DNA from: Myxococcota bacterium
Lineage (GTDB): Bacteria; Myxococcota_A; SURF-8
DNA length: 64,000 bases
Direction: 5' to 3'
Assembly (NCBI GenBank): GCA_965140415.1
Contig: OZ223209.1
Span: 4,360,986 to 4,424,985 of the forward strand
The position numbers and the translations under genes are program-made. Shown piece by piece: positions 11,508 to 60,134 of this stretch (the stretch's first letter is position 1; each line of letters opens with the position of its first letter). The notes under the pieces were generated by a model, which was given only the letters and a program-made list of their open reading frames with translations, was not told where the DNA came from and did no database searches.

Positions 11508-11527
11508 AACAACCGCTTTTACCCGTT

Positions 11528-12229: not shown

Positions 12230-12409
12230 GTGCGCCCTCGGAAGAGAGAAGAATACCTTAATACGAACATCCGCTATTCTTCGGTATACTTGGATGCGGG
12301 AAAGCCGTCAATCGTTTCTTTTAATCGTTTCAGTATCCGAACAATCGAAACGATGCGGGAAACTCCCCCAAATTCGTTCTCTGTCATCGAATCGGGGAGA
12401 CAAGCACAC

Positions 12410-43407: not shown

Positions 43408-46400
43408 TCAGGATTCCGCCACATCGGGGGTATTGACAGTTGCTTCCACTTCCGCCGATTCTTTTTTGCCAAGCAGCAGGCGAGCCAGGCGGCTGTGCTC
43501 CAGATCGTCGATCAGCGTGTAGACAACCGGAATCACGACCAGGGTCAACACGGTCGACGCGATCAGACCGCCGATCACCGCCACCGCCATGGGAGCGCGC
43601 ATTTCCGAACCCAGTCCGTTACTTAACGCGACCGGCAACATACCGAAAACCATGGCGCCGGTGGTCATCAAAATCGGACGTAAACGAGTGGGTCCGGCCT
43701 TCAATAAGGCCTCTCTCCGGCTGAATCCATCGCGCCTGCGCAACGTATTGGTGTAGTCGATCAGCAGAATCGCATTTTTCGTCACCAATCCCATGAGCAT
43801 GATAATTCCGATCATGGAAATAATACCTAGCGCCTGCTTGGCCAGCAGCAATCCGGCGAGTGCACCGATCAACGACAACGGCAGCGACAGCATGATGGTA
43901 AACGGTTGCAGGAAACTTTCGAACTGGCTGGCCAGCACCATATACACGATGATGATCGCTAAAAACAGCGCCACCGACATATGCTCGAAGTTTTCCTTCA
44001 TGAACTTGGCTTCGCCTTCCCATTCACGCATCAGATGCTTGGGAACCACTTTTTCCGCCACGGCATTGATTTTCTGTACGGCATCGCCCAATGGCAAAGT
44101 CGTATCCAGGTTTGCCAGCACCGTGATTTCACGCTGGCGCGCACTGCGGTCGATCTGTGTCGGACCGGAGCCGACGTAGATATCGGCGGTATTGGCCAGT
44201 GACACGAGCTGGCCATTGGAAGAGCGGATCTTCAACATGCCCAACTGTTCTTCCCGTTCACGATCGGTTTCCGCCAATTGCACCCGGATTTCGTAGTCCT
44301 CGCCAGAGTCTTTGTATTTGGAGGCTTCGACTCCGGCCACAAACGCACGCAAGGTCTGGCCGACCTGGGCGGTCATCAAACCGAGATTCGCAGCCCGTTC
44401 GCGGTCGATATTGACTTTAAGTTCCGGCTTGCTCGCTTCGAAGGTCGTATCCAGATCGACGACGCCGGGAATGAGCTTGATTTCATCCGCCAGTTCGCGT
44501 GTCACGCGGTCCAGTTCTTCCAGATCCCCACCACGAATGCTAAGCTGAATCGGCGCACTTCTAAACCCACCGGAAGAAGCAAAGGCATCGACATCTTCAA
44601 CGGTGATGGTGGCTTCCTCGGAACTGGTCAATTCAGCGCGAAGAAGTTCGATAAACTTGCCCTGCGAAATATCGCGCTCACCCTTACCGCACAGCTTCAC
44701 GTAGATCTGCGCAACGTTCTTCTTTTTCTGAGCATCGGAACCGACTGTTGTGACCGTACTTACCACCACATCACGGTGAGCGCGAACTTTTTCCGCCAAT
44801 TCGGAAGCCATCCGTTCGGTATGTTCGATGGTGGAACCCGTGGGCAATGTCAATACGACATTGATTTCACCCATATCCGCCCTCGTTTTCATTTCCGTAC
44901 TGATGAACGTTCCCATGTACAGAGAAAGGATAAAAATGGAGATGGCGGCAATTACCGTAGTCTTGCGATAGTTCAGCGCCAAACTGATGACCGAGCGATA
45001 ACCGGAGTCGATCCAGTTAAGGAATCGTTCGATGGCATCGTATACCTTATTCTGGCCCCCCTTCTTCAAGAAGCGGGAACTGAGCATGGGCGTTAGCGTG
45101 AATGAGACGAACAGTGACAGCAACACGGCGACCGTAACCGTCAATCCGAACTGATACATAAATCGTCCGATGATACCACCCATAAAGGCCACCGGCACGA
45201 ACACCGCGACAATGGATAAGGTAGTTGCAAGAACCGCCAGCCCGATTTCGTCGGTCGCAAAAGCAGCCGCTTCACGCGCTGACATGCCCTCTTCCATGTG
45301 CCGGTAGATATTCTCCAGCACAACGATGGCGTCATCGATCAAAATACCGATGGAGATGGAAAGCGCCAGCATCGTCAAGGTGTTGAAGGTGAAATCCATC
45401 ACGTAGATAAAGGTGAATGTTCCGATAACCGAGGTCGGAATGGCAAGCGCGCTGATAATCGTGCTGCGTCCGTTTCGCAGGAAGAAGAAGATGATCACCA
45501 CGGCCAGAAACGCGCCGAAAATCATATCGAACTGCACGTGCTCGATGGACGTCTGAATAAAGGGCGTACTGTCCGCTGCGATGATTACCCGCCAGCCATC
45601 CGGGAAAGCGGGTTGCAATTCGGCCAGGCGCTCTTTCAGTTTTTCCGCGACAGCAACGGTATTCGTACCCGACTGCTTGAGCACTTTCAAAGTAACGGCG
45701 CGCGTTCCATCCAGTTTGGCGGCGGATTCACGCTCTTCCAGACCATCTTCCACCGTGGCGATATCCGCGATCCGAATACGCCTTCCCTGCTGCTCAACAA
45801 CAGTCAGGTTGCGGATTTCGTCCAGATTCTGAAACTCGCCATCTATTTTCAGTACGAATTCGGTGTCACCGGCAGTAACCCGTCCGCCAGGAATACTCAG
45901 ATTGCTGGCAGCCAATACCTGCACGATATCCGTAACCGCCAGGTTCCTCGCTTCCAGTTTACGGGGATCGACCCAGACTTTGATTTCGCGTTCCTGTCCA
46001 CCGATGATGTCGATACTACCGACACCTTGAATTTGCTGGATCTGCTCTTTGATTCGCTTACGGGCGAATTCCGTAACTTCGCTGATCGTTCCGGGTCCAC
46101 TGACCGCAAGGGTCATTACCGGGATGGCGTCCATGTCGAATTTTTCGACTTTGGGAGATTCGATTTCCGCAGGCAGATCCGGCAGAATACGTGAAATCTT
46201 ATCCCGAACATCCTGAATGGCCTGTTCGGCATTGACTTCCATTTCGAACATGATGATTACCTGGGAAACGTTCTCCGCGCTGATGGAGCGCAGCGAACGA
46301 ATACCGTTGATGGTGCTCACCGCTTCTTCGAGTTTTTCGCTGATCTCGGTTTCCACAGTCTCCGGGTCGGCGCCGGGATAGATCGTTAATATCGTGGCAA

Positions 46401-46530
46401 CCGGGAATTCAATATCCGGGTACAAATCCACGCCGATACGCGGATAACTCACCGCACCAAACACCACGATAGCCAGAATAACCATCGTGATGAAAACGGG
46501 GCGTTTGATCGATACATCAGAAAGGACCAT
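43408..46530 (-). CDS. RND efflux permease (AcrB/MexB-type, HAE1-like)
   Basis: A 1,040-aa protein. The N-terminus [42 protein letters not shown] is the canonical AcrB-family start. It has the 12-TM architecture with two large periplasmic loops. Confidence 0.95.
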   Translation of the reverse strand: [1040 protein letters not shown]

Positions 46531-46541
46531 CTGTGCCCCCC

Positions 46542-47669
46542 TTAGATTTGCTGCTTAGGCTGGATGTCTTGACCATCCTTCAAATCGTCGACGCCGCTGA
46601 CAATCAACTGATCGCCGCTGGACAATCCCTTGTTCACCAGCACGCGCTCTCCCTGGCTTTCCCCCAGAGTCACAAATACCACCTGAGCCTGTTCGCCTTT
46701 GGCGAGGTACACAAAGCTCTTGTCGTTGATGTCGCGCTTGACGGCGCGCACCGGCACGAGAATCGCCTGATCCACGCGATTGCGTTCCAGACGAATTCGG
46801 CAGAATGCACCAGCCTTGATGTCTCCAGTAGGATTGTCGATGCGCAGCCGCACTTCGAAATTCTGCGCGCCCTGCTGAATACGATTACTGGCGAAGATGA
46901 TTTCGCCGGTGGTTTCCTTATCCGCGTAACCGATCGTGATCTTAGCCTTGTCGCCTTTTTTCACGTGGGCGGCAGCGTCTTCCGGCAGAAACGCCTGCAC
47001 TTCCAAAGAGGAGGCATCCACGATCTTGATCAAGGGCGTCAACGGCATGGAGGGCGCGTATTCGCCGATTTCTTTCAGGATCATGTCGATCACCCCATCA
47101 TAGGGGGCTTTCAATACGGAGTCGGACAGCGCCTTCTGCGCCTGTTCCAAACCGCTTTCCGCCATCTGCAACTGAGCCACGGCACCATCGTACTGCGCTT
47201 TGACACGATCGTAATTCGACTGCGAGGTCGCACTGGATTCAAGCAGTTGACTCATGCGGTCCAGTTCCAGCTTCATTAAATCGGCCTGCGTCCGGGCGGC
47301 CTCGCGGGCGGCTGTGGCTTGCTTGACGCCCAACGAATACCCTCGCTGATCGAAGCGCACAAGCACTTGCCCCTTCTTCACGACATCACCTTCTTTGACC
47401 CGGATTTCTTTAATTGTACCAGGCACTTCGCTGCTCAAAAAACTTTCCCGGAGAGGAAGAGCCGTACCGGTCACTTCGATTTCCGAGGTAAACGGCTCCG
47501 TTTTCAGTTCGATTACACTGACCAGCTTACCTTTTTGATCCAATACCGCCGCCTGGGCCGGAGATTCGACTTTCGCCGGCTGGCAGCTCAACAACACAAA
47601 GGACAGCAGCATCATTGCCAGTAATGCACTGTACCTCGTTTCCACTTGTGTTTGCCTTGGATGACTCAT
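46542..47669 (-). CDS. RND periplasmic adaptor (membrane fusion protein) lipoprotein
   Basis: Lipobox VLLSCQ. It has a biotinyl/lipoyl-like hairpin (VPGTIKEIRVKEGDVVKKGQVLVRFD), a coiled coil and beta-barrel segments typical of the AcrA/HlyD_D23 family. AAGGAG lies upstream. Confidence 0.9.
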   Translation of the reverse strand: MSHPRQTQVETRYSALLAMMLLSFVLLSCQPAKVESPAQAAVLDQKGKLVSVIELKTEPFTSEIEVTGTALPLRESFLSSEVPGTIKEIRVKEGDVVKKGQVLVRFDQRGYSLGVKQATAAREAARTQADLMKLELDRMSQLLESSATSQSNYDRVKAQYDGAVAQLQMAESGLEQAQKALSDSVLKAPYDGVIDMILKEIGEYAPSMPLTPLIKIVDASSLEVQAFLPEDAAAHVKKGDKAKITIGYADKETTGEIIFASNRIQQGAQNFEVRLRIDNPTGDIKAGAFCRIRLERNRVDQAILVPVRAVKRDINDKSFVYLAKGEQAQVVFVTLGESQGERVLVNKGLSSGDQLIVSGVDDLKDGQDIQPKQQI

Positions 47670-47706
47670 GCTCCAAACTCCTTGCTCTGGTTGGTTCTTT
47701 TCGAAA

Positions 47707-49122
47707 TCAATTTAACAGATCGTTGCCCATGCTGAGCATGAGAGCGGTTTCAGCAATCTTGACGTTCATTTCCGCAACAATCAGGTCGTTTTCCGCTTTG
47801 ATCGCCTGGGTCTGGGTACCCAGCAAATCGGTGGTCGTCGCTTCCTGCACTTCGTAGCGCACTTCCTCGATTCGCAGGCTTTCCTTGGCTTGTTTCAACT
47901 GCGCGCTGGCAACTTCCACTTCTTGCAGAGCTTCTTTGAGATCCAGGCGCTTCTGTTCCACCTGCAAGCGTACACCGTCGGTAGCCGCTTGCAGACCGTA
48001 GGTGGCGATGTCGTGCTGGGCGTAGGCGCTTTTCGCTTTGTAGAAATCGGCACCCCACTCCCAGATGTCCCAACTCAACACCAACCCGCCGAAATAGGCG
48101 TGTTTTTGCGACATGTCTCCCAAGCCGCCTGCATATTCATACTGGAAGACGGCATTCAGTTCCGGCAACATGGCCGCGATAGCCGCATGTTTGCCCGCTT
48201 TGGCCGCTTCTTTCTGATGTTGGATGGCTTTCAGCATGGGATGGGTTTGCACCGCCGTACTTTTCTGAGCCTGCAACGAATCGTTCAACAACTGCGTTCC
48301 GACCTGTTCTTCATATACCGGAATCAGTGGAGAATCGAAGCTGCGGCCCATGTACATGTTCAGCGCAGCCTTAGCCAGTTGAATGCCCTTTTCCACCTGG
48401 AAAATATTCTTCTGGATTTCGGCTTTCTGGACCTGAACTTTCAACAAAGCGTTACGCTCGACCAACTCGGCTTCCATGTAAGCTTCGACCTGCTTTTCGT
48501 AGGCTTCCACCTGCTTGTACGCACTTTTCACGGTTTCGAGCATGCGGGTAGCCGAAATCAAGCTGTAATAGGCTTTTGACACGGTGCCTTCGATATCCTG
48601 GCGTTTGGTGTCCCGATTGTAGCGGGCGGCGTCCGTTAACTCGTCGTTGGCCCAATATCCGGAGTAAATCTGGTACAGTTGCGTAAGCGGCTGGGCGACG
48701 GTCACCTTGGCGCCATAAGTAAGCTGCTCGCGCAGCACCATGCTGGTATCCGCCGTCAACAAGGGCTGCAACTGCGCCTGAGTATCTGCCGACAGAAACG
48801 GTCCCATTTCTTCGAACACCGCGCCCAGTGGTCCCATGAAGTCTCCAAGCATGTCGCTTGTAAACTCATCACCCCAGTACAGGAGATTCGCTTCCGCGCG
48901 CACCATCGGCAAGAAACGTCCGCGAATGCTGTTCCGCTCGCCAAGCTGTTTCTCGACTTCGGCGTTTGCTGCCTTCAACTGGCTGTAATTACTAACGACT
49001 TCATTCAGGCATTGCTCCAGGGTCATTCGTTCGGCCCATGCCTGATTCGCGGGAAAAACAACCGTTAGCAGCAATACAACAATCAGCCACATCGGAATTT
49101 TGATCCACACTTTCCGCTTCAT
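47707..49122 (-). CDS. TolC-family outer membrane efflux protein
   Basis: A signal peptide is followed by LTLEQCLNEVVSNYSQLKAANAEVE and a duplicated OEP repeat pattern. ATG 49122 lies 2 nt after the TetR stop. Confidence 0.9.
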   Translation of the reverse strand: MKRKVWIKIPMWLIVVLLLTVVFPANQAWAERMTLEQCLNEVVSNYSQLKAANAEVEKQLGERNSIRGRFLPMVRAEANLLYWGDEFTSDMLGDFMGPLGAVFEEMGPFLSADTQAQLQPLLTADTSMVLREQLTYGAKVTVAQPLTQLYQIYSGYWANDELTDAARYNRDTKRQDIEGTVSKAYYSLISATRMLETVKSAYKQVEAYEKQVEAYMEAELVERNALLKVQVQKAEIQKNIFQVEKGIQLAKAALNMYMGRSFDSPLIPVYEEQVGTQLLNDSLQAQKSTAVQTHPMLKAIQHQKEAAKAGKHAAIAAMLPELNAVFQYEYAGGLGDMSQKHAYFGGLVLSWDIWEWGADFYKAKSAYAQHDIATYGLQAATDGVRLQVEQKRLDLKEALQEVEVASAQLKQAKESLRIEEVRYEVQEATTTDLLGTQTQAIKAENDLIVAEMNVKIAETALMLSMGNDLLN

Positions 49123-49124
49123 GT

Positions 49125-49712
49125 TCAATTCCTCTTTGTTAATCCTTCAAAGATTAGATCCAGATACTCTTTTACTTTTTGTCTTCCCTGCTCGAATGTC
49201 ATGTTTCCCATGAAAATCTGGTTCAACGCTTCATCCATGGAAATATTCAACAATTCCGCCGCTACCGTAGGTCTCCGGCAGGCGATTTCATTACGCTGTA
49301 CACCTTCTAGAATCACTTCAGTAAAGACGTCCACCGCCTGTTTATGATGAAACTTCAGGCCTATCTCGATTTCACTTTTCATTTCCAGCCAGATCTCGGG
49401 AGAAATCGCTTTGCCATCCAGGATACGGATCGTGCTATCCAGAATGCTGTCGAACATCTTTTCGAACGTGTCACGCACCGTCTCGCCAAGCTGCCGCGCC
49501 TTGTCCATTCGAATGAAATGGCTTTCGGCGATCCGATTGATACAAGCTAAAAACAGCTCCCGCTTGCCGGGAAAATATTTGTAAATAGCTGATTTTACTA
49601 AACCTAAGTCACCTGCAATATCCTCTAACCGGCACCTGCGAAATCCATTGTGGAAAAAGTACCGTTCCGCAGCATCCAATATCTGTTCTCGTCTCATGTT
49701 TTCCGTGCTCAT
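49125..49712 (-). CDS. TetR/AcrR-family transcriptional regulator
   Basis: The N-terminal HTH is REQILDAAERYFFHNGFRRCRLEDIAGDLGLVKSAIYKYFPGKRELF. It is the first gene of the efflux operon. Confidence 0.9.
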   Translation of the reverse strand: MSTENMRREQILDAAERYFFHNGFRRCRLEDIAGDLGLVKSAIYKYFPGKRELFLACINRIAESHFIRMDKARQLGETVRDTFEKMFDSILDSTIRILDGKAISPEIWLEMKSEIEIGLKFHHKQAVDVFTEVILEGVQRNEIACRRPTVAAELLNISMDEALNQIFMGNMTFEQGRQKVKEYLDLIFEGLTKRN

Positions 49713-49907
49713 CTTACCACCTGGTGACCAAGTGAACAATTCGTTCATTTGTTCACTATTGCAATAAAAATGTCAAGCGTTTTTTTGTTGAGTAATATTT
49801 TCATGAGAGTAAGCCGGAAGAATAAGCGCACACACCAGCTTATGCCCCAATCGACAAGAGATTGCAGGTCGGGTCAGATGACCCTTTGGATGGTTCAAGG
49901 CTCCCGT

Positions 49908-51231
49908 CCACATCTGTCCGGTTAACTTTAACGCAAACCACAGTAACTATCCAGTATCTTTAACAAAAACACCTCTTTCAATGTGCTTGCGATAGATTTT
50001 CGTTCTCGTGCAAAATGGACTTGTTTTCCATGACCCATTTGCAGGAGGAGCATATGCCTCAAACTGTCTTTTCGCAAGTACTTGATTACTTGCCCAATTG
50101 GCATTTCAGACGTTGTGTCCACCGCTATCAGGGGAACAAGCGCATTCGTACCTTTTCCTGCATGGATCAATTCATCTGCATGGCATTCGCGCAGTTGTCT
50201 TACAGGGAAAGTCTGCGCGACATCGAAGCGACCTTGCGTGCGTTGGGATCAAAACTCTACCGAATGGGGGTTCGAGGAAAAGTATCTCGAAGTACACTGG
50301 CCGACGCCAACGAGCACCGCGACTGGCGTATATACGAAGATCTCGCGCAACCTCTGATACGGCGCGCTCGCACACTGTATGCGGACGAAAAGCTCGGCGT
50401 CGATCTGGATGCCACCGCTTACGCTCTGGACACCACGGCCATCGATTTGAGTTTGTCTCTTTTTCCCTGGGCCAAATTTACACGTCACTATGGATCGCTC
50501 CGACTGCATACGCAGATGGATCTGCGCGGACGAATTCCTACCTTTATTTCCATTACAGACGGTAAAAGCCAGGACAAGCGTCTGCTGGATATTCTGCCCC
50601 TGGAAGCGGGTGCTTTTTACATCATGGATCGCGGATATCTGGATTACAAGCGGATGTATAAAATCAATCAAGCAGGAGCTTTCTTTATTCTTAGAGCACG
50701 AAAGGATACGCACACAAAAAAGATTTATTCTCGTCCTGTTGATAAAAGCACAGGTTTGAGAACAGACCAAACCGTTTCTCTTGTTGATCGCGCTTCCCTC
50801 AAGCGTTACCCCGACCAGTTGCGGCGTATCAATTACACCGATCCGGAATCGAAAAGCCGATTTGTCTGGCTGACCAACGCTTTCGATCTGCCATCGGAAA
50901 CGATTCCGGACTTGTATCGGCTTCGTTGGAGCATCGAAGTGTTTTTCAAATGGATCAAGCAGAATCTACGCATCAAGGCGTTCTACGGGACCAGTGCCAA
51001 CGCGGTGAAAACGCAGGTATGGATTTCGATAACAGTTTACCTTTTAGTGGCGATTTTGAAAAAGGATCTGAATCTCGAGCACAGTTTGATGACGATTCTA
51101 CAGATTTTGAGCGTCACACTTTTCGAGGAAAGCCCCATTTTACAGGTACTGAAGGCAAATGGTGATTCAGCGAAATCCCCCCCTTTCGGTAAACAGTTGG
51201 AATTATTCAATAGTTAACCGGACAGATGTGG
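49908..51231 (+). mobile_element. IS4-family insertion sequence, copy 1 (1,324 bp)
   Basis: Perfect 19-bp terminal inverted repeats: CCACATCTGTCCGGTTAAC at 49908-49926 and its complement at 51213-51231. It has a single transposase ORF whose stop codon lies inside the right IR. Confidence 0.9.
50054..51217 (+). CDS. IS4-family DDE transposase (387 aa)
   Basis: AGGAGG lies upstream of ATG 50054. DDE context is ALDTTAIDL and FYIMDRGY, with the YRLRWSIEVFFKWIK Y-(2)-R-(3)-E-(6)-K signature of IS4-family enzymes. Confidence 0.9.
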   Translation: MPQTVFSQVLDYLPNWHFRRCVHRYQGNKRIRTFSCMDQFICMAFAQLSYRESLRDIEATLRALGSKLYRMGVRGKVSRSTLADANEHRDWRIYEDLAQPLIRRARTLYADEKLGVDLDATAYALDTTAIDLSLSLFPWAKFTRHYGSLRLHTQMDLRGRIPTFISITDGKSQDKRLLDILPLEAGAFYIMDRGYLDYKRMYKINQAGAFFILRARKDTHTKKIYSRPVDKSTGLRTDQTVSLVDRASLKRYPDQLRRINYTDPESKSRFVWLTNAFDLPSETIPDLYRLRWSIEVFFKWIKQNLRIKAFYGTSANAVKTQVWISITVYLLVAILKKDLNLEHSLMTILQILSVTLFEESPILQVLKANGDSAKSPPFGKQLELFNS

Positions 51232-51302: not shown

Positions 51303-52610
51303 CCACAGCTGTCCCGCTAACTTCCAGGTTCAGCGCTACAACTACTTATTATTACAGATTGAATTTGTGATTATCAGGTGTCCGCGATAGTTTTTCTGCA
51401 TTTCGAATAGTCAAGAAATGCAGGAGATCAAAATGACACAGACTGTCTTTTCGCAAGTGCTCGACTATTTGCCGGATCGCCATTTCCGCCGTTGTGTCAA
51501 TCGCTATCAGGGGAACAAGCGCATTCGTACCTTTTCCTGTATGGATCAATTCATTTGCATGGCATTTGCCCAGCTGGCCTACCGCGAAAGCCTGCGCGAT
51601 ATTGAAGCGACCTTGCGGGCTATTCAGCTGAAACTTTATCACATGGGTCTGCGTGGAAAAGTCTCTCGCAACACACTGGCCAGAGCGAATGAAAAACGCG
51701 ACTGGCGCATTTACGCAGATCTCGCTCAGCCCCTGATACGGCGCGCCCGCGCGCTGTATGCGGACGAGAAGCTCGCCGTCGACCTAGACGCCACCACCTA
51801 CGCGCTCGACACGACAGCGATTGATTTGAGTTTGTCGCTTTTTCCATGGGCCAAATTCACGCGATACAATGGATCATTGCGTCTTCACACGCAAATGGAC
51901 CTTCGCGGACGGATTCCCGCCTTTATTTCCATTACGGACGGCAAGAGCCATGACAAGCGTTTACTGGATATTCTGCCTTTGGAAGCGGGCGCATTTTATA
52001 TCATGGATCGCGGTTATGTCGATTACGGACGCATGCATCGCATCCATCGGGCGGGAGCCTTCTTCATTCTTAGAGCCAGCAAGAACACCAGCACAAAGCG
52101 AATCTATTCACACCCCATCGACAAGAGCTTGGGATTGCGCGCCGATCAGACCGTGAGCTTCGTGGACCGTGCTTCCATTCGACGCTATCCGGATCATGTG
52201 CGGCGAATCAACTACATCGATCCAGAATCGAACACCCGATTTGTCTGGCTGACCAACAACTTTGATCTTTCTTCGGAAACGATTCCGGACTTGTACCGGC
52301 TGCGGTGGAGTATCGAAGTGTTTTTCAAATGGATCAAACAGAATCTGCGAATCAAGGCGTTTTACGGTCGCAGCGCCAATGCGGTAAAGACACAAGTGTG
52401 GATTTCGATTACGGTTTATCTGTTGGTTGCGATTCTGAAAAAGGATCTGAATCTCGAGCACAGTTTGATGACGATTCTACAGATTTTAAGCGTCACGCTT
52501 TTCGAGGAAAGCCCCATTTTACAGGTGCTAAAGGCAAACGCCTCCCTGCCTACCAATATCCCTTTTGGTAAGCAGTTGGAATTATTCAATAGTTAACGGG
52601 ACAGCTGTGG
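51303..52610 (+). mobile_element. IS4-family insertion sequence, copy 2 (1,308 bp, or 1,326 bp if the 28-bp inverted repeat is counted)
   Basis: The IRs are CCACAGCTGTCCCGCTAAC at 51303-51321 and its complement at 52592-52610 (1 mismatch). Complementarity extends 9 bp outward (GACGGGAGC at 51294-51302 and GCTCCCGTC at 52611-52619). Confidence 0.85.
51433..52596 (+). CDS. IS4-family DDE transposase (387 aa), paralogue of 50054-51217
   Basis: It has the same length and motifs as copy 1. Most positions are identical by eye, and the C-terminal third is nearly identical. Confidence 0.9.
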   Translation: MTQTVFSQVLDYLPDRHFRRCVNRYQGNKRIRTFSCMDQFICMAFAQLAYRESLRDIEATLRAIQLKLYHMGLRGKVSRNTLARANEKRDWRIYADLAQPLIRRARALYADEKLAVDLDATTYALDTTAIDLSLSLFPWAKFTRYNGSLRLHTQMDLRGRIPAFISITDGKSHDKRLLDILPLEAGAFYIMDRGYVDYGRMHRIHRAGAFFILRASKNTSTKRIYSHPIDKSLGLRADQTVSFVDRASIRRYPDHVRRINYIDPESNTRFVWLTNNFDLSSETIPDLYRLRWSIEVFFKWIKQNLRIKAFYGRSANAVKTQVWISITVYLLVAILKKDLNLEHSLMTILQILSVTLFEESPILQVLKANASLPTNIPFGKQLELFNS

Positions 52611-52637
52611 GCTCCCGTCTTGAACCTTCGGCTTTCG

Positions 52638-52657
52638 GTCGGGGCTCCTGTCCCGAC
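52638..52657. repeat. REP-like hairpin (GTCGGGGC-tcct-GTCCCGAC)
   Basis: An 8-bp stem including one G-T pair, immediately right of the IS pair. Confidence 0.5.
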
Positions 52658-52846
52658 CACAAAGACAAAAGTCAAACGACGCTTGCCCATGTGACCCTCG
52701 AACACGGGCAAACCTGCGGTTTAGCCCGCGCCACCCTGACTGTTGAATACACAAGCAAAAACGGCAGGCTTACGCTCCGCCGCTACAGAAGTCAAAAAGT
52801 TGTATCGTCTAAAATAATGAGGAACCGCGATAGACCGGAGTTGGGC

Positions 52847-53653
52847 TTAGCCAACCGACAGCATAGAAGAAATCCTATCGGGAGTACAGGTTTCCAAGAT
52901 GCAACGATCCACGGCATAGCAGTATTTCGAGAATCCCCGTTGCTGCAATTCGAAATGCTGGATCATGCGCAGCACCCAGCGCGGAACATCCGTTTCCGTT
53001 TTGATTTCCAGCACGACGGGAGAATCGTCTTCGTTGCACGAAGCCGTTTCGGCATCGTCGAAGTAGACAAAGGTGTCATCCGTTAGGAAGTTAGTATCTC
53101 CATGCGTTGCGCGGGAGGAAATCCCCCGGTCGAAGGTGATTCGACAGTAGTTCTCGTAATCGCTGATATAGGGTTCACGACTGTAACGAACGTGTATAAC
53201 CGGAGCGGCGCCATATCGTAGAACCGCGTTTTCAAACGACTCACGCAAATTGCTCTTGATGACCGCACCGGGGCGCTCGCCGTTTTCCACCATCCGGCTC
53301 GCGGCTTCATCGAAAATGCCTTCCCAGCGATCGTATTCGATTCTGCGTCGCGTCTTCCAGGTAATCTTTTGAAGCTTGTGCTTCACCTCGAGCCACAGGT
53401 ATTTACCCGGCTCGTTGCCGTAAAAACGCACCCGCAACTTGAAGCGATTGAACTGCTTGAATTTCGTATCGTAGTAGAAGCGCAGATCCGGTGTGTCGAA
53501 ATAGAAATTGTTCACGTTGTAGCGATTATCCGGCCCGGCATAGGAATCCGGCGAGCACATGCACTGGATATAATCCCGAATCGCCCGAGCTTTAGACTCG
53601 CTGATGAGGCACTTCGTTTCGTAACGACTGATGACAACTCGTTCATCCTTCAT
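52847..53653 (-). CDS. VTC-domain (CYTH-like, polyphosphate-polymerase domain) protein
   Basis: ISRYETKCLISESKARAIRDYI...YNVNNFYFDTPDLRFYYD...FKLRVRFYG...YLWLEVKHK matches the remembered bacterial VTC-domain pattern (RYE.K..., SLYFDT.D..., KLR.R.Y, LE.K.K). GAGGTGG lies upstream. Confidence 0.8.
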   Translation of the reverse strand: MKDERVVISRYETKCLISESKARAIRDYIQCMCSPDSYAGPDNRYNVNNFYFDTPDLRFYYDTKFKQFNRFKLRVRFYGNEPGKYLWLEVKHKLQKITWKTRRRIEYDRWEGIFDEAASRMVENGERPGAVIKSNLRESFENAVLRYGAAPVIHVRYSREPYISDYENYCRITFDRGISSRATHGDTNFLTDDTFVYFDDAETASCNEDDSPVVLEIKTETDVPRWVLRMIQHFELQQRGFSKYCYAVDRCILETCTPDRISSMLSVG

Positions 53654-53673
53654 GATCCACCTCGATGTAAATC

Positions 53674-54948
53674 CTACTTGGTCAATGAACGCTCGCTTTG
53701 CACCCCTACTATAGTAGACACATTGATGGCTTCAATTGTTACATCGTAAACCGCTTCTTTGAGCATGATTTTCATTTCAATATCCGAAATCTCCAGATCT
53801 AGGATCTCATCCTGTGGCAGTTGCTGCGACTTCGCCTGCTGGATCAGTTGCTCCATTTCACCAAGCGACACTTGTGCCTCTTGCTTCAAAGCCTGATATT
53901 CCCCAAATGCCTGCCGGTATTTCACCATTGCCTTTGAGAGATCCCGGTCGACTTTCGTCTGCTCGGCTTCATGGAAAAGCGAGAGGTTGTTTCGTTCGAT
54001 TTTCGTGGAGCGCAACTTTCCGAGATTCCAGTTGAACAGGGGCACCTCGATTCCCAATACCAGTTCACCCCAATCCGTCTTTTGACTTTCGTAGTGATAG
54101 TTCGCCTCGACGAAGGAAAACCAGGGAATGAGCTTGAAGCGTTCCGCCCGGTAACGACTTTGCGCCAGAGCCATCCTTCGCTTGGAAAGCTCCGCTTCCG
54201 GGCGATTGGAAAACGCCACGGTTTGCAGTGTCTCATCATCCAGCACAAGTTCCACCGGCTCGGATTCAATTACGGTCACGTTCTCTGAAACGCCAACAAG
54301 CCTGGCGAAATGCTTTTTGGTTTCGCTATAGCGACCAGCAATTCCCATGGCCTCGCGCTTGGCCTTGACGAAACGCCGTCTGGCCTTCATGCGATTCCCA
54401 AGCGAACGACTACCTAATTCGCAAAACTTGGAGACGATTTCATTTCGACGTTCTTCCAACTCCTGCTTGCGCTGTGTCAACTCCGTAAGAGATTGCAATA
54501 GAACCAGTTCCGCATAGGTTTCGCGAATGTCGGAGATCACGTCCATCTTCAAGTCGAAGGCATCGACCCGTTCTTCCCAAAGATCGACCTGACTTTCAGC
54601 CTGCTTCTCACTCAACTCGCCGATTCTCGGCAAACGCCAGCGAAGGCCGATTTGGAATTCCTGATTGTCCACGCTCGAATCGAAATACTTCGTGGAAAGA
54701 TCGCGAAAGCGAAGTTCGGGGTTATCGACTTCGAAGCGGGAAAAGTCGGCGACTTTCTTTCTTGCCAGGACCTGTGCGTTTGCCTTGTTGAGTTCGGCAC
54801 TTTTTTCAAGTCCTCGTTCAATCGCAGCGGCTTCGGTAATGACGTTTGTACCTTGTTCGGCAGAGGCCGCCAGACTCGGAAGCAGCAGAAACGCAACGAA
54901 TCCGACCAGCACTGCTTTTTGTAGTGTTGCGTATGTCATGACGATCAC
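53674..54948 (-). CDS. TolC-like outer membrane efflux protein
   Basis: The signal peptide (LLLPSLAASAEQ) is followed by an OEP-type helical repeat pattern (AAIERGLEKSAELNKANAQVLARK...). GTG 54948 overlaps the HlyD stop as GTGA; ATG 54939 is an alternative start. Confidence 0.75.
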   Translation of the reverse strand: MIVMTYATLQKAVLVGFVAFLLLPSLAASAEQGTNVITEAAAIERGLEKSAELNKANAQVLARKKVADFSRFEVDNPELRFRDLSTKYFDSSVDNQEFQIGLRWRLPRIGELSEKQAESQVDLWEERVDAFDLKMDVISDIRETYAELVLLQSLTELTQRKQELEERRNEIVSKFCELGSRSLGNRMKARRRFVKAKREAMGIAGRYSETKKHFARLVGVSENVTVIESEPVELVLDDETLQTVAFSNRPEAELSKRRMALAQSRYRAERFKLIPWFSFVEANYHYESQKTDWGELVLGIEVPLFNWNLGKLRSTKIERNNLSLFHEAEQTKVDRDLSKAMVKYRQAFGEYQALKQEAQVSLGEMEQLIQQAKSQQLPQDEILDLEISDIEMKIMLKEAVYDVTIEAINVSTIVGVQSERSLTK

Positions 54949-56162
54949 AACTTGGTGTTGGAGGAATCGGGTGCGGCCTCCGGTTTTGCGGCATCACTTG
55001 CAGCAGGAGGCAGCATTTTCGGTTCGTTTTCCACAGCCTTCGACGGAAGCGGCTCCGAAGGGCTCTTGTTGTAGCTGTCCAACAAAGCCTGGGTGGAAGC
55101 CGGAATTCCGCTTAACAATTTCACCTGGGCGGCCTCACCCGGCACAAGGTTGTCGCCGTCGTCTATTTTCACTCGGAATTTTCTGGCCCAGTAGATCAGC
55201 TTTCGAAATGCCAGCCGCTCGGGAATCGACGAATAGCTCGGGTCCACAAACACGACGGTTCCGCCTGCGGCATACTGCCCCGTACGATGCGGATAGATAC
55301 CGACACGTTCACCAAGGCGGGGAATGGTATCGGATGTTTCCGGCACATAAGCATCGATGAATTCGGCATCCGGTTCTTCAACCGTTAGAATCGTGGCAAA
55401 CGCCTCGACGGAATCGCCCGGCAGGTAGTTGATTTTCACCACGCGCCCCTCGCAGGGGGTGATGACCTTGATTCGGTTCATGCGGGTATCCAGGATTTTC
55501 AACCGCAAGCGAATTTCATGGATGCGGTCCATACGGTCACTCAACATCGACAGCACCACCCGCTCGCCTTCGCTCTCGCCCCAACTCGACCGGGACGTTT
55601 TCTTGGAAGAAGACGTTTTGTTTCTTTCCGTGCTCTGCGACTGAATGAAACGGGTCAGCGTATCGCGCCGGATGATCAAATTCGAAAGTTCCTCGGGACG
55701 CCCCAAGCCCTCTTTCTGCGCAGCCGTCAAGCGTTCGATTTCTCCATTGACTGCGGCCAGTTCCGCTTTCTTCATTTCAAGTTCCGAGCGCCACTGTCCC
55801 AAACGCGAGGCATCCGTTTCGCTTTGCAGACGGAGTTTTTCGTATTCCAACGAAAAGCGACTGCGGTCGGCTTCCATCATGTCTTCCAGGCGCACCAGTT
55901 CCTGCTCCAACCACTCTTTTTCCGCTTCCAGATCGGTGCTGTCCAACGTTACGAGCAATTGATTGGCCTGCACTTGATCGCCCAAGGTGACGAAAATGCG
56001 GTCGATGCGACCGGATTCCTGGGCGCTCAATTTATGGGTGCGCGTTTCCACTACACCGATGAAATCGATGTCGATTGCGAAAAAGTAGTACATCACGGCA
56101 GATAAAATCGCGATCAATCCCCAGGCTACCCAAAATACATTCTGTCTTTTTAAAGCTTTCAC
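54945..56162 (-). CDS. HlyD-family membrane fusion/adaptor protein
   Basis: It has an N-terminal TM helix, a lipoyl-like hairpin (ESGRIDRIFVTLGDQVQANQLLVTLD), a long coiled coil, a beta-barrel segment and a disordered Pro/Ala/Ser tail. GTG start with AGGTGA upstream. Confidence 0.8.
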   Translation of the reverse strand: MKALKRQNVFWVAWGLIAILSAVMYYFFAIDIDFIGVVETRTHKLSAQESGRIDRIFVTLGDQVQANQLLVTLDSTDLEAEKEWLEQELVRLEDMMEADRSRFSLEYEKLRLQSETDASRLGQWRSELEMKKAELAAVNGEIERLTAAQKEGLGRPEELSNLIIRRDTLTRFIQSQSTERNKTSSSKKTSRSSWGESEGERVVLSMLSDRMDRIHEIRLRLKILDTRMNRIKVITPCEGRVVKINYLPGDSVEAFATILTVEEPDAEFIDAYVPETSDTIPRLGERVGIYPHRTGQYAAGGTVVFVDPSYSSIPERLAFRKLIYWARKFRVKIDDGDNLVPGEAAQVKLLSGIPASTQALLDSYNKSPSEPLPSKAVENEPKMLPPAASDAAKPEAAPDSSNTKL

Positions 56163-56169
56163 GATTCAC

Positions 56170-56850
56170 CTACACTTCCACGGTTGTCTGTTGATTCAGG
56201 TACGACAACCCTCGGATACCTTCGATTTTTTCAAGTTCAGCCAACAACCGGTCGCAGTCGCGTTCATTATTGAAGCGCACCTGGTAGGCATAATCCATCA
56301 TTTCGCCCTGCGCCACGCTCCGCTTGGTAACCAATGCAAAATGACTTGGTATGCTTCCGATGATTTCGGCTACCTTTGTGGAACTGTCATTTCCGGAAGG
56401 CGCTTGAAAACGAACCAGGCCGTCGTGATTGCGTCGCTGCCCGAAAGAAGTGGCCTGCATGATGACCGCCGCAAAGGCAAACATGGCGGCTCCGACAACG
56501 GCGGTGTGATAACTCTGCACACCGCAAGCAACACCGACACCCAGAGACGCGAATAAAAACACCAGATCGCGTGGGTCGCGCAAGTTGGTTCGGAAACGGA
56601 TAATCGCCAGCGATCCGACAATACCGATGCCGCGTGCGACGTTATCACCGATGGCGATCATGATCAGACTGGCGATCATGCTGCCTAAAACCATTGCCTG
56701 TAGTAAATTGCTCGACCAGGACAAGCCTTTGAAGGTTTTTTCGTATACCTTGGCCAACAAGCTGGACAACAAAAAGGCCAGTAATAATGACAGCATCGTG
56801 TGATGCCATTCCAATTTTACCGAACCGAAGCTGAGCAATAAACTTTCCAT
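56170..56850 (-). CDS. DUF4956-domain membrane protein
   Basis: About four TM helices carry the hallmark GIVGSLAIIRFRTNLRDPRDLVFLFASLGVGVACG block. A soluble C-terminal domain follows. Confidence 0.8.
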   Translation of the reverse strand: MESLLLSFGSVKLEWHHTMLSLLLAFLLSSLLAKVYEKTFKGLSWSSNLLQAMVLGSMIASLIMIAIGDNVARGIGIVGSLAIIRFRTNLRDPRDLVFLFASLGVGVACGVQSYHTAVVGAAMFAFAAVIMQATSFGQRRNHDGLVRFQAPSGNDSSTKVAEIIGSIPSHFALVTKRSVAQGEMMDYAYQVRFNNERDCDRLLAELEKIEGIRGLSYLNQQTTVEV

Positions 56851-56906
56851 CTTCTTCTCGCTTTTCTTCCATGCACAACTTCAGGCATAGCCGTGCAAGC
56901 TACCGA

Positions 56907-57563
56907 TTACATCCAACGCTCCAGATGGGAACGCGCCTGCTTTATGTACAAGGGATTTCCAGTCGCCGCGAAGCCGTTGACCTCCTCAAACGGGAAGTTC
57001 TGGGCTGCAATCGACCCCATTGCAAAAATATCGTCTATAACACCCTTAAAATCGGCATCAAAGACAGAATCATCACCTTTTAAAACCGCCACACGAAAAT
57101 TGCCTATCCCCTGGCTTGAAGATTCTCCGCAATCGGAAACATCAGCTTCCCACTCTATCCACTTTTTCAAATCACCAAGGCGACCGACATCCGGTTTCAT
57201 ATAGGTATAATGGTTAGCATCCGTTTGAAGTGCAGTCCAGGACAAAATGACTTGAAGCGCTCCAATTAGATCCTGAATTTCTTGCACTTGCTTTTCACGG
57301 AAGGAAAAAGTGGGATGATCCATATCTTCGGGAAAACACTCCCGAATCGTGCCGATGACGATCAGCGAAACGACCTTTTGGATAATTATTCGACGTATTG
57401 TGTGACTATTCAACACGAAGGGTTCCATAATCTTTCTCATCCAGCTCCAACACCCGTATTCACAGGCAATTCTTGCATCGACACTGCAACCACCGCCATC
57501 TTTGCAAAAATAAATATACTCACCTAATCTTAAGACTTTCTTAAGCATTGTTAGATATATCAT
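56907..57563 (-). CDS. Hypothetical protein in a visibly AT-rich segment
   Basis: A 218-aa ORF with no recognised motif. The start is uncertain (several in-frame Met). There is no signal peptide. Confidence 0.4.
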   Translation of the reverse strand: MIYLTMLKKVLRLGEYIYFCKDGGGCSVDARIACEYGCWSWMRKIMEPFVLNSHTIRRIIIQKVVSLIVIGTIRECFPEDMDHPTFSFREKQVQEIQDLIGALQVILSWTALQTDANHYTYMKPDVGRLGDLKKWIEWEADVSDCGESSSQGIGNFRVAVLKGDDSVFDADFKGVIDDIFAMGSIAAQNFPFEEVNGFAATGNPLYIKQARSHLERWM

Positions 57564-57631
57564 ATTTTGATAATGTTTTTTTAACGATTCAATAATAATT
57601 GTTGAATCCTCGGACTAAGGAACGGCTCGCC

Positions 57632-58300
57632 ATGACAGATACGATTCTCCTTATCGAAGATGATGAGGAACTGGGCAGTCAAATCGTCGAACATCTTCGG
57701 AAAGCCGGATTCTGGACGATCTGGAAGAAGGAAGGAGAACGGCTGTTAGAGAATGCTGCACCCGAATTCTCGCTGCTGATTCTAGACTTGATGCTGCCTG
57801 GAACCTGGGGGATCGACATTCTCAAGCATCTGCGTAGCTACTCGGACGTTCCCGTTCTGGTATTGAGCGCGCGCAATCAAACGGCAGACAAAGTCCGGGC
57901 ATTTAGACAAGGCGCGGATGATTACATGACGAAGCCTTTCTGGCCGGAAGAGTTGATCGAGCGCGTTCGGGCGAGATTACGTCGTCCGGTCATGCAAAAA
58001 GAAGGACCGGTGGAAATCGATTCACTGACCATCGATGTCGCAAGACGCGAGATTACGAAAGAGGACAAGCAGATCGACTTGACCCGTGTCGAATTTGACC
58101 TGCTCGCGGCCTTGGTCCACAGACGCGGTGAAGCGGTGACCCGGCGTTGGCTGGTGGACAACATTCTCGATCCGGATAAGGACGGCACCGAGCGCACACT
58201 GGACGTTCACATTTCGCATCTCAGAAAGAAACTGACCGTCGATAACCTGATCGAGACCGTTTGGGGAATCGGCTACCGCCTGAAAACGGAAAAGAATTAA
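57632..58300 (+). CDS. OmpR-family response regulator
   Basis: Receiver motifs are ILLIEDDEEL, LLILDLMLPG and ADDYMTKPF. The winged-helix region is LTRVEFDLLAALVHRRGEAVTR...VHISHLRKKL...IETVWGIGYRL. Confidence 0.95.
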   Translation: MTDTILLIEDDEELGSQIVEHLRKAGFWTIWKKEGERLLENAAPEFSLLILDLMLPGTWGIDILKHLRSYSDVPVLVLSARNQTADKVRAFRQGADDYMTKPFWPEELIERVRARLRRPVMQKEGPVEIDSLTIDVARREITKEDKQIDLTRVEFDLLAALVHRRGEAVTRRWLVDNILDPDKDGTERTLDVHISHLRKKLTVDNLIETVWGIGYRLKTEKN

Positions 58301-59913
58301 TGACCCTGCGCCTTCGCCTAGCTTTGACCACCCTGTTGGTGGGACTTCCCGTACTGATCGGGTTCTGGGTCGTGCAGTATTACTTTGAGGAACGTTTAGA
58401 CAAAGAATCCATTTCCCAGTTCGTACTGGCGTACATGCAAAGCGGGGGCCGTGAAGAGTGCGAAGCGAATCCCGCTTTGTGGAACGGTGGAAAGCTTGGC
58501 CGTATGCCTTCGATGTCCGATAATCACCCCCCCGAGATGCCGATGAATCAAGACGACCCTGCCGACCCATGGAACCGGGACCCCGGCGGCGGACCTCCGG
58601 GCGATATGCCTCCGAATCGAGACGACAGAAATCCGCCTCCACACAAAATGGATGGGATTTACGCCTATAACGCAGGGTATCAGTCCAGCAATAAAGACGC
58701 GCCTTCATTGGCCACAGAATTGACCGAACAGATCGAAGCAGGAGACAGCGTCGCCCAGCGCCTGATCGAAGATAAGCGGATGCAGTGCCGCCCGCCAAAC
58801 TGCAGGCAGATTTTTTTTAGACCACATCCACCGAACGGACCAAAGAAGCCCATGCTGCGCGAAGTGCTGATCCGCATGCCGTGGAACGAGGGTCCCTGCG
58901 CACGCATCCTGGTTCGACGTCCCGCGCCGCCGTTTATCCATCGCGCAGGCCGCATCATTCCCACCACTCAAATCTGGCTGCTTCCGTTTTTCGCCGTGCT
59001 GGCGGCGCTGCTGTTTTCCATCGGTCCGGTCGTAAAACGGATTCGTTTACTGACGCTCGAAGTTCGCGAATTCGCCAAGGGACAATACAAACCGACGGTA
59101 ACAGTAAAAGGAAAAGACGAAATCGGCGAACTGGCTCGCGCTTTCAAAGTCGCTGGGGAAGAAATCCGTACGCAGATCGCCAAACAGGAACTTCGGGAAC
59201 GGACACTGCGCAACTTCCTTGAAAACACCACCCATGACGTCATGATCCCGCTGACGGTATTGCAAGGCCACTTAAGCGACATGATGGAGCGCACACACGG
59301 CGCTGAAGAAATGGATGCAGACCTGGTCAGTTCCGCCATGAACGAGGCGCAATACATCTCCTCCCTGATCGAAAATCTGTTGATTGCGGCAAAGATCGAA
59401 GAGGGTGAACCGAGCCTGCACTGGACACAAGTCAACATGAATTCGTTGATCGAGCGAGTGATCGGACGCCATCAGCCGATCGCCCGGCCCAAGCTGGTTA
59501 CGCTTGAATATGCGGTTCCCGAAATACCGTTGATTGTAGACGGAGACATTACCTTCATCGAACAGGCTGTGAATAATATTGTTTACAATGCAATCAATCA
59601 CAATCTGCCGCAGGGCCATGTGGCCGTGGTACTGGAACCGGAAGGAGCAGATGACTTCATATTGCGTGTTATCGACGACGGTCCCGGCATTGCCGAAGAA
59701 GAACTTTCCAGACTTGTAGACCGCTGGTTTAGAGGTAACGCCGCGCGAAGTCGCGGAACGAAAGGCCAGGGCCTGGGTCTGAGTATCGCCTATCAACTTG
59801 CCAAACTGCACCATTGGAGTTTCGAGCTGAGTCGTTCCTCTTTCGGAGGATTGCAGGTCGAACTTGCAGGAAAACGCATAAGTAACGAGGATCACTCCAG
59901 CAATTCCGAATAG
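58300..59913 (+). CDS. Sensor histidine kinase (HAMP-HisKA-HATPase) with a proline-rich periplasmic domain
   Basis: The ATG overlaps the regulator stop (TAATG). There are two TM helices. The H-box is NTTHDVMIPLTVL, the N-box NAINHN, and the G-boxes DDGPGI and GQGLGLSIA. Confidence 0.9.
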   Translation: MTLRLRLALTTLLVGLPVLIGFWVVQYYFEERLDKESISQFVLAYMQSGGREECEANPALWNGGKLGRMPSMSDNHPPEMPMNQDDPADPWNRDPGGGPPGDMPPNRDDRNPPPHKMDGIYAYNAGYQSSNKDAPSLATELTEQIEAGDSVAQRLIEDKRMQCRPPNCRQIFFRPHPPNGPKKPMLREVLIRMPWNEGPCARILVRRPAPPFIHRAGRIIPTTQIWLLPFFAVLAALLFSIGPVVKRIRLLTLEVREFAKGQYKPTVTVKGKDEIGELARAFKVAGEEIRTQIAKQELRERTLRNFLENTTHDVMIPLTVLQGHLSDMMERTHGAEEMDADLVSSAMNEAQYISSLIENLLIAAKIEEGEPSLHWTQVNMNSLIERVIGRHQPIARPKLVTLEYAVPEIPLIVDGDITFIEQAVNNIVYNAINHNLPQGHVAVVLEPEGADDFILRVIDDGPGIAEEELSRLVDRWFRGNAARSRGTKGQGLGLSIAYQLAKLHHWSFELSRSSFGGLQVELAGKRISNEDHSSNSE

Positions 59914-59998: not shown

Positions 59999-60134
59999 AA
60001 GGGTGAGGGTGACATTAACCACCCGTCGGGGAGCTTTACATCATTGATTTTGTTTTCTGGTTTTGTTCCTTGCATTTTCGTGTTCGATGAATTTTGAAGT
60101 CCTGACGGGTATCGCAACAAGCGCGGGCGCTACC

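Follow-up and report, generated by a model that had tools for sequence, protein, structure and literature searches.

How can a conduit that spans a bacterial envelope be driven when its operon encodes no pump? The question is raised by four genes in a 64,000-nucleotide stretch of contig OZ223209.1 from a Myxococcota bacterium (the whole stretch is hereafter called the window), which encode a DUF4956 membrane protein, a HlyD/EmrA-like adaptor, a TolC-like outer-membrane efflux protein (OEP) and a VTC-domain protein resembling the yeast polyphosphate (polyP) polymerase Vtc4. The inner-membrane families of tripartite systems are ABC, RND and MFS according to a review. The answer that we favour, with moderate confidence, is that the four genes encode a synthesis-coupled polyP exporter that would span both membranes, as the original prediction, made from the letters of this DNA, had proposed. 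The argument draws on synteny, on the conservation of residues and on analogy with known systems. Of the four possible refutations listed with that prediction, three could be computed (an overlooked pump gene, an unconserved linkage and missing catalytic residues), and none of the three was found.

Organisation and conservation of the cassette

The four genes of the cassette, from DUF4956 to VTC, are as follows.

56170..56850, minus strand: DUF4956 gene, 226 amino acids (aa); inner-membrane protein, proposed conduit and docking partner of VTC
54945..56162, minus strand: HlyD/EmrA-like adaptor gene, 405 aa; membrane-fusion protein (MFP), short form
53674..54948, minus strand: TolC-like OEP gene, 424 aa; outer-membrane factor (OMF)
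52847..53653, minus strand: VTC gene, 268 aa; putative Vtc4-like triphosphate-tunnel polyP polymerase

The open reading frames (ORFs) were recovered at exactly 56850..52847, which bears out the description of four close-packed genes on the minus strand. As read from the sequence, a 7-nt gap lies between the DUF4956 stop codon and the GTG start of the adaptor, the adaptor and OEP genes share a 4-nt GTGA overlap (with an alternative ATG 9 nt downstream), and the 20-nt gap between OEP and VTC contains a GAGGTGG ribosome-binding motif. The overlap of start and stop codons at the adaptor/OEP junction recurs, again with 4 nt, in related loci. A scan of 52400-57700 for promoters and terminators returned counts no higher than the shuffled expectation, and none of the four proteins matched a PADLOC defence model. 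The earlier domain calls were upheld, all four proteins being placed above the curated cutoffs by Pfam.

The conservation of this arrangement was examined by scanning 185,579 species-representative genomes with a DUF4956 profile; 140 stretches matched, the best 80 loci were kept, and all of their ORFs were scanned with custom hidden Markov models (HMMs) for the cassette genes. Nine further loci were taken from public assemblies, mostly metagenomes, some of them being the same contigs as loci of the scan; single loci are denoted L001 and so on. The order DUF4956→adaptor→OEP→VTC and the strand are constant in every locus long enough to show them, the order being seen in 70 non-redundant loci with both DUF4956 and VTC on the contig, and on shorter contigs it agrees as far as the sequence reaches. 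The exceptions are L069, the cassette of which has no OEP gene, and the Bdellovibrio loci, in which it is uncertain whether the gene in the corresponding position encodes an OEP. Throughout, the adaptor and OEP genes are nested between DUF4956 and VTC, with ORFs that overlap or nearly abut. Judging by record titles, the loci belong to Myxococcota, Latescibacterota, Gemmatimonadota, KSB1, Neomarinimicrobiota, Calditrichota, Ignavibacteria and Bdellovibrionota, and the linkage of VTC and DUF4956 with an adaptor and an OEP is conserved in at least eight phyla. The carriers of the cassette version in Bdellovibrio are cultured strains with complete genomes, and this genus is probably genetically tractable. 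The operon of L031 includes an LTD/CotH-like gene (10920-12965) that separates DUF4956 from the adaptor, and L041 has a further VTC gene (4302-5180) upstream.

Distance matrices of the four proteins, calculated for 60 loci, correlate pairwise with r=0.83-0.90, the mean pairwise identities being 64% for DUF4956, 51% for VTC, 40% for the adaptor and 37% for the OEP. The correlated distances fit one co-inherited module, and the shared species phylogeny contributes to the correlation.

An overlooked pump gene was not found: Pfam annotation of the ORFs revealed no ABC, RND or MFS protein in the operon. When the non-cassette ORFs of ~85 loci were clustered, no ABC, RND or MFS gene recurred within 8 kb of the cassette, and none was present in or beside it in nine independent contexts annotated with Pfam. 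An ABC ATPase near the cassette of Bdellovibrio is encoded on the opposite strand and was found in that genus only.

The VTC protein and its DUF4956 partner

The VTC protein scores 129.2 bits against the Pfam VTC family (cutoff 23), covering positions 2-232 of the 235-position model. It consists of the VTC domain alone; hydropathy and inspection of the N-terminus revealed neither a hydrophobic segment nor a signal peptide, and the protein is accordingly predicted to be soluble and cytoplasmic. A profile of 52 VTC homologues matched only Vtc4 and Vtc2 in the PDB. The window VTC and yeast Vtc4 were both aligned to this profile, and the catalytic residues of Vtc4 correspond in the profile alignment to those of the window VTC as follows.

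Vtc4 K200: window VTC K14
Vtc4 R264: window VTC R74
Vtc4 R266: window VTC R76
Vtc4 K281: window VTC K91
Vtc4 Y359: window VTC Y157
Vtc4 R361: window VTC R159
Vtc4 E426: window VTC E216
Vtc4 S457: window VTC S242
Vtc4 K458: window VTC K243

The basic catalytic residues of the tunnel are present, all nine of the Vtc4 residues being kept in the window VTC. The nine are identical across the 52 homologues, K14 falling on an alignment gap in one of them, and the equivalents of Vtc4 R373 and K428 are conserved in the same alignment. According to the cryo-EM study of the yeast VTC complex, the mapped residues bind triphosphate and Mn2+ and are needed for polyP synthesis, and K458 is the single residue by which active Vtc4 can be told from the inactive Vtc2 and Vtc3, where Leu or Ile takes its place. 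The AlphaFold2 (AF2) model of the VTC protein has a predicted local distance difference test (pLDDT) score of 87.8, and the top 13 matches in a Foldseek search are tunnel domains of Vtc4, Vtc2 or Vtc3 (E down to 5.6e-13; TM-score 0.58-0.67), so that the tunnel fold of yeast Vtc4, attributed to this protein in the original prediction, is borne out by both the Pfam score and the structural search. Ranks 14-35 are triphosphate tunnel metalloenzyme (TTM) folds annotated as triphosphatase, adenylyl cyclase and thiamine triphosphatase. Its residues and predicted fold suggest that the VTC protein is a polymerase of the active type.

The membrane protein scores 47.4 bits against Pfam DUF4956 (cutoff 30.6). 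Like MgtC/SapB proteins, it has about five transmembrane (TM) helices and a C-terminal ACT-like domain, with weak similarity over TM2-TM5, but its scores lie under the MgtC family cutoffs (20.5 of the required 31.4 bits in Pfam; 20 of 255 bits in NCBIfam, E=3e-4); such weak matches point to a remote kinship with MgtC rather than to membership of the family. We know of no link of MgtC to VTC, adaptors or export. The AF2 model (pLDDT 77.6) contains five TM helices (15-39, 47-67, 71-88, 93-110 and 114-133) joined on the periplasmic side by short loops, and a C-terminal β-α-β-β-α-β domain (144-219), ACT-like and predicted to be cytoplasmic. Foldseek matched the model to ACT-like domains only, including the C-terminal domain of MgtC (2LQJ). 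In an alignment with the window copy as reference, the invariant motif is GDNxARGIGxVGSLAxxRFRTNLRDPRD. With the topology deduced from the positive-inside rule, its GDNxARG part maps to the predicted periplasmic end of TM2/TM3, and its RFRTNLRDPRD part to the predicted cytoplasmic TM3-TM4 loop. The DUF4956 family as a whole comprises 5,782 clusters at 50% identity, within which the subfamily of the window is a small, tight clade.

Adaptor, channel and neighbouring genes

The adaptor is recognised by Pfam as HlyD_D23 (41.8 bits, cutoff 30) and HlyD_3 (24.2 bits, cutoff 22.2), and also as Biotin_lipoyl. Its best NCBIfam match is EmrA/EmrK (TIGR00998), with 59 bits against a cutoff of 390.8, and it lies below all subfamily cutoffs; for the adaptor of L001, which is 63% identical to that of the window, the best PDB sequence match is EmrA (4TKO). 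Hydropathy reveals one hydrophobic segment, residues 9-38, which forms an N-terminal TM anchor. EmrA represents the class of adaptors that serve inner-membrane partners with little periplasmic mass, and an EmrA-like, TM-anchored adaptor therefore fits a DUF4956 partner, the periplasmic loops of which are short. Only 35 homologue clusters make up the adaptor subfamily in a set of 5.8 billion proteins, and the four homologues for which the gene context was looked up all lie inside the same cassette.

The OEP scores 55.6 bits against Pfam OEP (cutoff 22), with two repeats, and 23.7 bits against the NCBIfam TolC family TIGR01844 (cutoff 225, E=2e-5). It carries a cleavable N-terminal signal peptide (N-terminus MTYATLQKAVLVGFVAFLLLPSLAASA-EQ). 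In Bdellovibrio (L074-L085), the gene between the adaptor and VTC encodes a helical protein of 383 aa with a signal peptide (for example, L079 12417-13568), for which no Pfam match was found.

Of 80 adaptors, 55 are fused to a C-terminal phytase-like β-propeller; the remaining 25, the window copy among them, are short forms. The propeller-bearing homologues are ~685 aa long, ~285 aa of which belong to the C-terminal domain. This domain, which has relatives in the Pfam families Phytase-like, DUF6929 and DUF6910, contains invariant acidic residues; a search of the PDB with its profile found no sequence relative. Four loci with short adaptors have a separate gene after VTC.

L088, 10802-11536: separate propeller gene after VTC, annotated as SdiA-regulated/Phytase-like β-propeller
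L020, 11792-12991: separate gene after VTC, homologue of the L088 gene
L021, 4062-4922: separate gene after VTC, homologue of the L088 gene
L018, 3961-4763: separate gene after VTC, homologue of the L088 gene

A search for standalone propellers with the HMM of the fused propeller gave no match, and the separate genes are tied to the fused propeller solely via the Pfam Phytase-like family. Remnants of a propeller or of CotH were not detected in the window by tblastn.

The other features around the window cassette are the following.

57599..58300, plus strand: response regulator gene, OmpR/PhoB family, divergent from the cassette
58261..59913, plus strand: sensor histidine kinase gene, HAMP-HisKA-HATPase, partner of the response regulator
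56907..57563, minus strand: orphan ORF of 218 aa, directly upstream of DUF4956
50015-51217 and 51418-52596, plus strand: two tandem IS4-like transposase genes, DUF4372 and DDE_Tnp_1
49748..43408, minus strand: TetR-OEP-MFP-RND operon, complete and conventional, with an AcrB-like RND protein of 1040 aa

The RND operon has its own adaptor and channel and hence is not the missing pump of the VTC cassette. Within 8 kb of the cassette in ~85 loci, only two kinds of neighbours recur, namely a two-component system and LTD/CotH proteins. The response regulator of the window (Pfam Response_reg and Trans_reg_C) is 68% identical to the regulator beside the cassette of the metagenomic relative L086, and the two histidine kinases share 51% identity over 525 aa. 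Homologues of the regulator lie at most 8 kb from the cassette in 10 loci, and those of the kinase in 11; the OmpR-type regulator is likely dedicated to the cassette. Comparison of this two-component system with PhoBR gave only generic similarity, the response regulator lying below every NCBIfam equivalog cutoff, and a role in phosphate sensing is not claimed.

Of 48 well-flanked loci, 29 encode LTD proteins within 3.5 kb of the cassette, mostly in the same orientation, and in 22 of these the protein carries a CotH kinase domain. The LTD proteins bear lipoprotein or signal peptides, or Por_Secre_tail domains of the type IX secretion system (T9SS), which places their site of action outside the cytoplasm. 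Neither LTD nor CotH was matched anywhere in the 64-kb window, and neither is found near the cassette in 19 of the 48 well-flanked loci, including all those of Bdellovibrio and L001, the closest genome relative. Since the window, L001 and Bdellovibrio all do without the accessories, the four genes constitute the core. The window cassette is a minimal version, with no propeller and no LTD/CotH protein and with the two-component system kept.

The 218-aa ORF matched neither Pfam nor NCBIfam and has no homologue among the ORFs of L001-L085. Its last 45 residues match two colinear pieces (172-204 on 557-589, and 205-216 on 703-714) of the 716-aa PPDK_N protein of L086, which is encoded directly upstream of DUF4956 and has homologues in L015, L035 and L064. 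The C-terminus of the ORF looks like the remnant of a decayed PPDK_N gene with an internal deletion, and the ORF is probably no functional part of the system. In some Myxococcota relatives, namely L086 (3831-9197) and also L015, L030, L035 and L064, four extra genes precede DUF4956 on the same strand; they encode a lipoprotein with an acidic linker, two weakly DUF1554-like proteins and the PPDK_N (ATP-grasp) protein, the last being without a match in L030. These genes may be a lineage-specific extension of the system. The two IS4-like elements share 80% DNA identity, have no further copy in the window and lie just downstream of VTC, in the position that LTD/CotH or propeller genes occupy in relatives. 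A Radical-SAM gene is present in the window at 60063-61169 (plus strand), and others lie near the cassette in several Myxococcota loci (L002 4168-5418; L004 16009-16821 and 20094-22094; L086 1-1002); in the clustering of neighbours across loci, these genes formed no widely conserved cluster.

A putative export route and its alternatives

A literature search agreed with the earlier statement that VTC is usually paired with DUF4956 and that the function of the pair is unknown. Among the papers covered, it linked neither VTC nor DUF4956 to membrane-fusion or TolC-like proteins and gave only an uncharacterised Gram-positive trio, in keeping with the claim that no system of this kind had been described; the four-gene system appears undescribed. 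The trio in question, CotH-VTC-DUF4956, has been noted beside Gram-positive Pel loci (in streptococci, clostridia and bifidobacteria) and in NELoc-2 of C. perfringens. A 2024 preprint models the streptococcal trio as a kinase that is secreted, a Vtc4-like polymerase that lies in the cytoplasm and has the catalytic residues, and a membrane protein with four TM helices and an ACT domain; its authors, working on S. intermedius, supposed that polyP remains cytoplasmic and did not propose export. No adaptor or OEP is reported among the accessory genes of monoderm VTC, DUF4956 and CotH. The cassette has in common with the trio the pair of VTC and DUF4956 and, in many relatives, a secreted CotH-like kinase; it differs in that the diderm version has an adaptor and an OEP between the pair, and the window copy has no CotH. 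As neither gene is reported with the monoderm pair, and diderms of many phyla have the adaptor and OEP inserted, the extra genes would serve the crossing of the outer membrane. The family DUF2490 consists of outer-membrane β-barrels. In B. thetaiotaomicron, a DUF4956 protein and a neighbouring DUF2490 protein form a co-regulated, iron-responsive pair (BT3498-BT3499, table in PMC10434189), and Bacteroidota may pair DUF4956 with a different outer-membrane component.

A precedent for the coupling of polymer synthesis to translocation is the yeast VTC complex, in which, according to the cryo-EM study, the chain passes through the TM ring of Vtc1/3/4. The cassette shares with this complex the catalytic tunnel domain, complete with the residues that bind triphosphate and Mn, as well as the proposed logic of synthesis coupled to passage through a membrane channel. 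It differs in that the window VTC lacks both an SPX domain and a Vtc1-type domain of three TM helices, in that the membrane partner is a separate and unrelated DUF4956 protein with five TM helices and an ACT domain, and in that export would cross two membranes by way of an adaptor and a TolC-like channel. A TM-anchored HlyD/EmrA-type adaptor encoded adjacently to a TolC-family factor is found in EmrAB-TolC, MacAB-TolC and HlyBD-TolC as well, whereas the inner-membrane partner in the cassette is not ABC, RND or MFS; unlike those of established tripartite and type I systems, the adaptor and OEP of the cassette score far below the curated subfamily cutoffs, and most of the adaptors bear the phytase-like propeller. 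In the alginate system Alg8-Alg44-AlgK-AlgE, polymerisation at the inner membrane drives the extrusion of a polyanion via a periplasmic and outer-membrane path, and Alg44 has an MFP-like periplasmic domain, a likeness to the cassette adaptor. In place of a membrane glycosyltransferase, however, the cassette would have a soluble tunnel metalloenzyme as its polymerase, its outer-membrane part resembles TolC and not a β-barrel porin, and the polymer would be inorganic.

From these comparisons, the following mechanism may be proposed. The soluble Vtc4-like VTC protein would polymerise a phosphate chain, most likely of inorganic polyP, from ATP at the cytoplasmic face of the inner membrane while docked on an oligomer of the five-TM DUF4956 protein, the invariant Arg-rich RFRTNLRDPRD loop being a candidate docking site. 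By analogy, the DUF4956 protein may form a pore, and its oligomer would conduct the growing chain in the role of the yeast Vtc1/3/4 ring. Polymerisation itself would power the translocation, with no need for an ABC, RND or MFS motor, and the EmrA-like adaptor and the TolC-like channel would lead the chain across the periplasm and out through the outer membrane. Once exported, the polymer is in many relatives probably put to use by the secreted LTD/CotH kinases or handled by the adaptor propeller; the window copy, which has neither accessory, would simply release or display it. Expression of the cassette would be controlled by the adjacent OmpR-type two-component system. In this scheme, we infer the contacts of DUF4956 with VTC and with the adaptor, the identity of the polymer, the direction of transport and the use of the product outside.

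Several observations weigh against an exporter. Sequence by itself proves neither the polymerase activity of VTC nor its product, and the chemistry of TTM enzymes, which include triphosphatases and cyclases, is varied. The TM part of DUF4956 found no match among solved structures in the Foldseek search, and we know of no transport function of MgtC, its nearest family. No fusion of VTC with DUF4956 was found among the top 150 representatives of the 5,782-cluster family, which leaves the physical coupling of the two without support from fusions. An electropositive adaptation of the conduit was considered and dropped: the net charge and isoelectric point of the OEP and of the adaptor are ordinary (a median net charge of -6 for cassette OEPs; -7 for the window adaptor), and the adaptor of the window has a basic Ser/Thr-rich hairpin loop that is not a conserved feature, the net charge of the loop having a median of +1 and being positive in 36 of 60 cases. 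The middle gene of Bdellovibrio aligns only faintly with the cassette OEP profile (hhalign probability 11%, E=0.0027) and may be a highly divergent or a different outer-membrane component. Finally, the window locus is eroded, with insertion sequence (IS) elements downstream, a remnant upstream, and no propeller or LTD/CotH gene.

The presence of secreted CotH/LTD proteins and of phytase-like propellers points to an extracytoplasmic use or processing of the product. In a hitherto unrecognised secretion route, polyP extruded by a type-I-like conduit with a polymerase as its drive might act outside the cell as the phosphoryl and energy donor of the secreted CotH kinases and propellers, that is, in an ATP-independent extracellular phosphorylation, a proposal that we regard as possible, though doubtful; the Gram-positive trio would then be the single-membrane version of the same system. 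A related account, in our view rather unlikely, keeps the same hardware and has CotH-type kinases or the propeller transfer the polymer or its phosphoryl groups to a periplasmic or surface acceptor (protein, glycan or lipid), so that the outcome would be extracytoplasmic phosphorylation or surface modification and not polyP secretion. Such a transfer would agree with the co-occurrence of secreted CotH/LTD proteins with the cassette, with the fusion of the propeller on the periplasmic side of the adaptor and with the position of the Gram-positive trio next to Pel polysaccharide loci; moreover, a secreted kinase finds no ATP beyond the cytoplasm and must draw on some other phosphoryl donor. On the other hand, neither the window nor 19 of the 48 well-flanked loci have LTD/CotH nearby, and ATP is the only donor that CotH, as studied in B. 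subtilis, is known to use.

The cargo may also be something else altogether. DUF4956 could be the transporter of a different small substrate, a cation or a metal-phosphate complex for instance, within a tripartite pump that is ordinary in other respects, with VTC as a regulator or energy module that acts as a triphosphate/ATP hydrolase or as a polyP-based gate and the product of which is not cargo. The resemblance of DUF4956 to MgtC-family proteins, its ACT-like regulatory domain, the triphosphatases and cyclases at Foldseek ranks 14-35 and the ordinary electrostatics of OEP and adaptor all speak for this account, but every catalytic residue of Vtc4 is invariably kept, the equivalent of the polymerase-specific K458 among them, the VTC model is nearest to Vtc4 and not to hydrolase TTMs, and monoderms have the VTC and DUF4956 pair beside secreted kinases; we consider it decidedly unlikely. 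That the window cassette is a decaying relic which has lost its function here, irrespective of the role of the family in other genomes, appears very unlikely to us. Two IS4-like elements lie directly downstream, where relatives have LTD/CotH or propeller genes, a PPDK_N remnant lies upstream, and the adaptor has no propeller; yet the four ORFs are full length, the invariant residues of DUF4956 and the catalytic residues of VTC are present (both alignments taking the window copy as their reference), the genes of the cognate two-component system are intact, and other lineages commonly have a short adaptor and no CotH. The least probable of the accounts weighed here is that of two independent, co-regulated modules, in which VTC and DUF4956 would make intracellular or membrane-bound polyP and the adaptor and OEP would use a pump encoded elsewhere. 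Orphan MFP and OMF genes that borrow partners are known, for example E. coli TolC, the L069 cassette does without an OEP, and the S. intermedius authors assumed cytoplasmic polyP. This separation sits poorly with the nesting, across at least eight phyla, of the adaptor and OEP genes inside the DUF4956/VTC pair, with the small adaptor subfamily, all members of which with examined context are inside the cassette, and with the lack of a pump gene that recurs nearby.

Should the synthesis-coupled polyP exporter be confirmed, the cassette would be the first tripartite envelope-spanning system with a polymerase as its engine in place of an ABC, RND or MFS protein, and the first dedicated bacterial export route for an inorganic polymer. 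It would give the widespread bacterial pair of VTC and DUF4956 a testable function, would explain how polyP arrives at the bacterial surface or in the medium, and would offer a supply of phosphoryl groups to secreted CotH-type kinases outside the cytoplasm.

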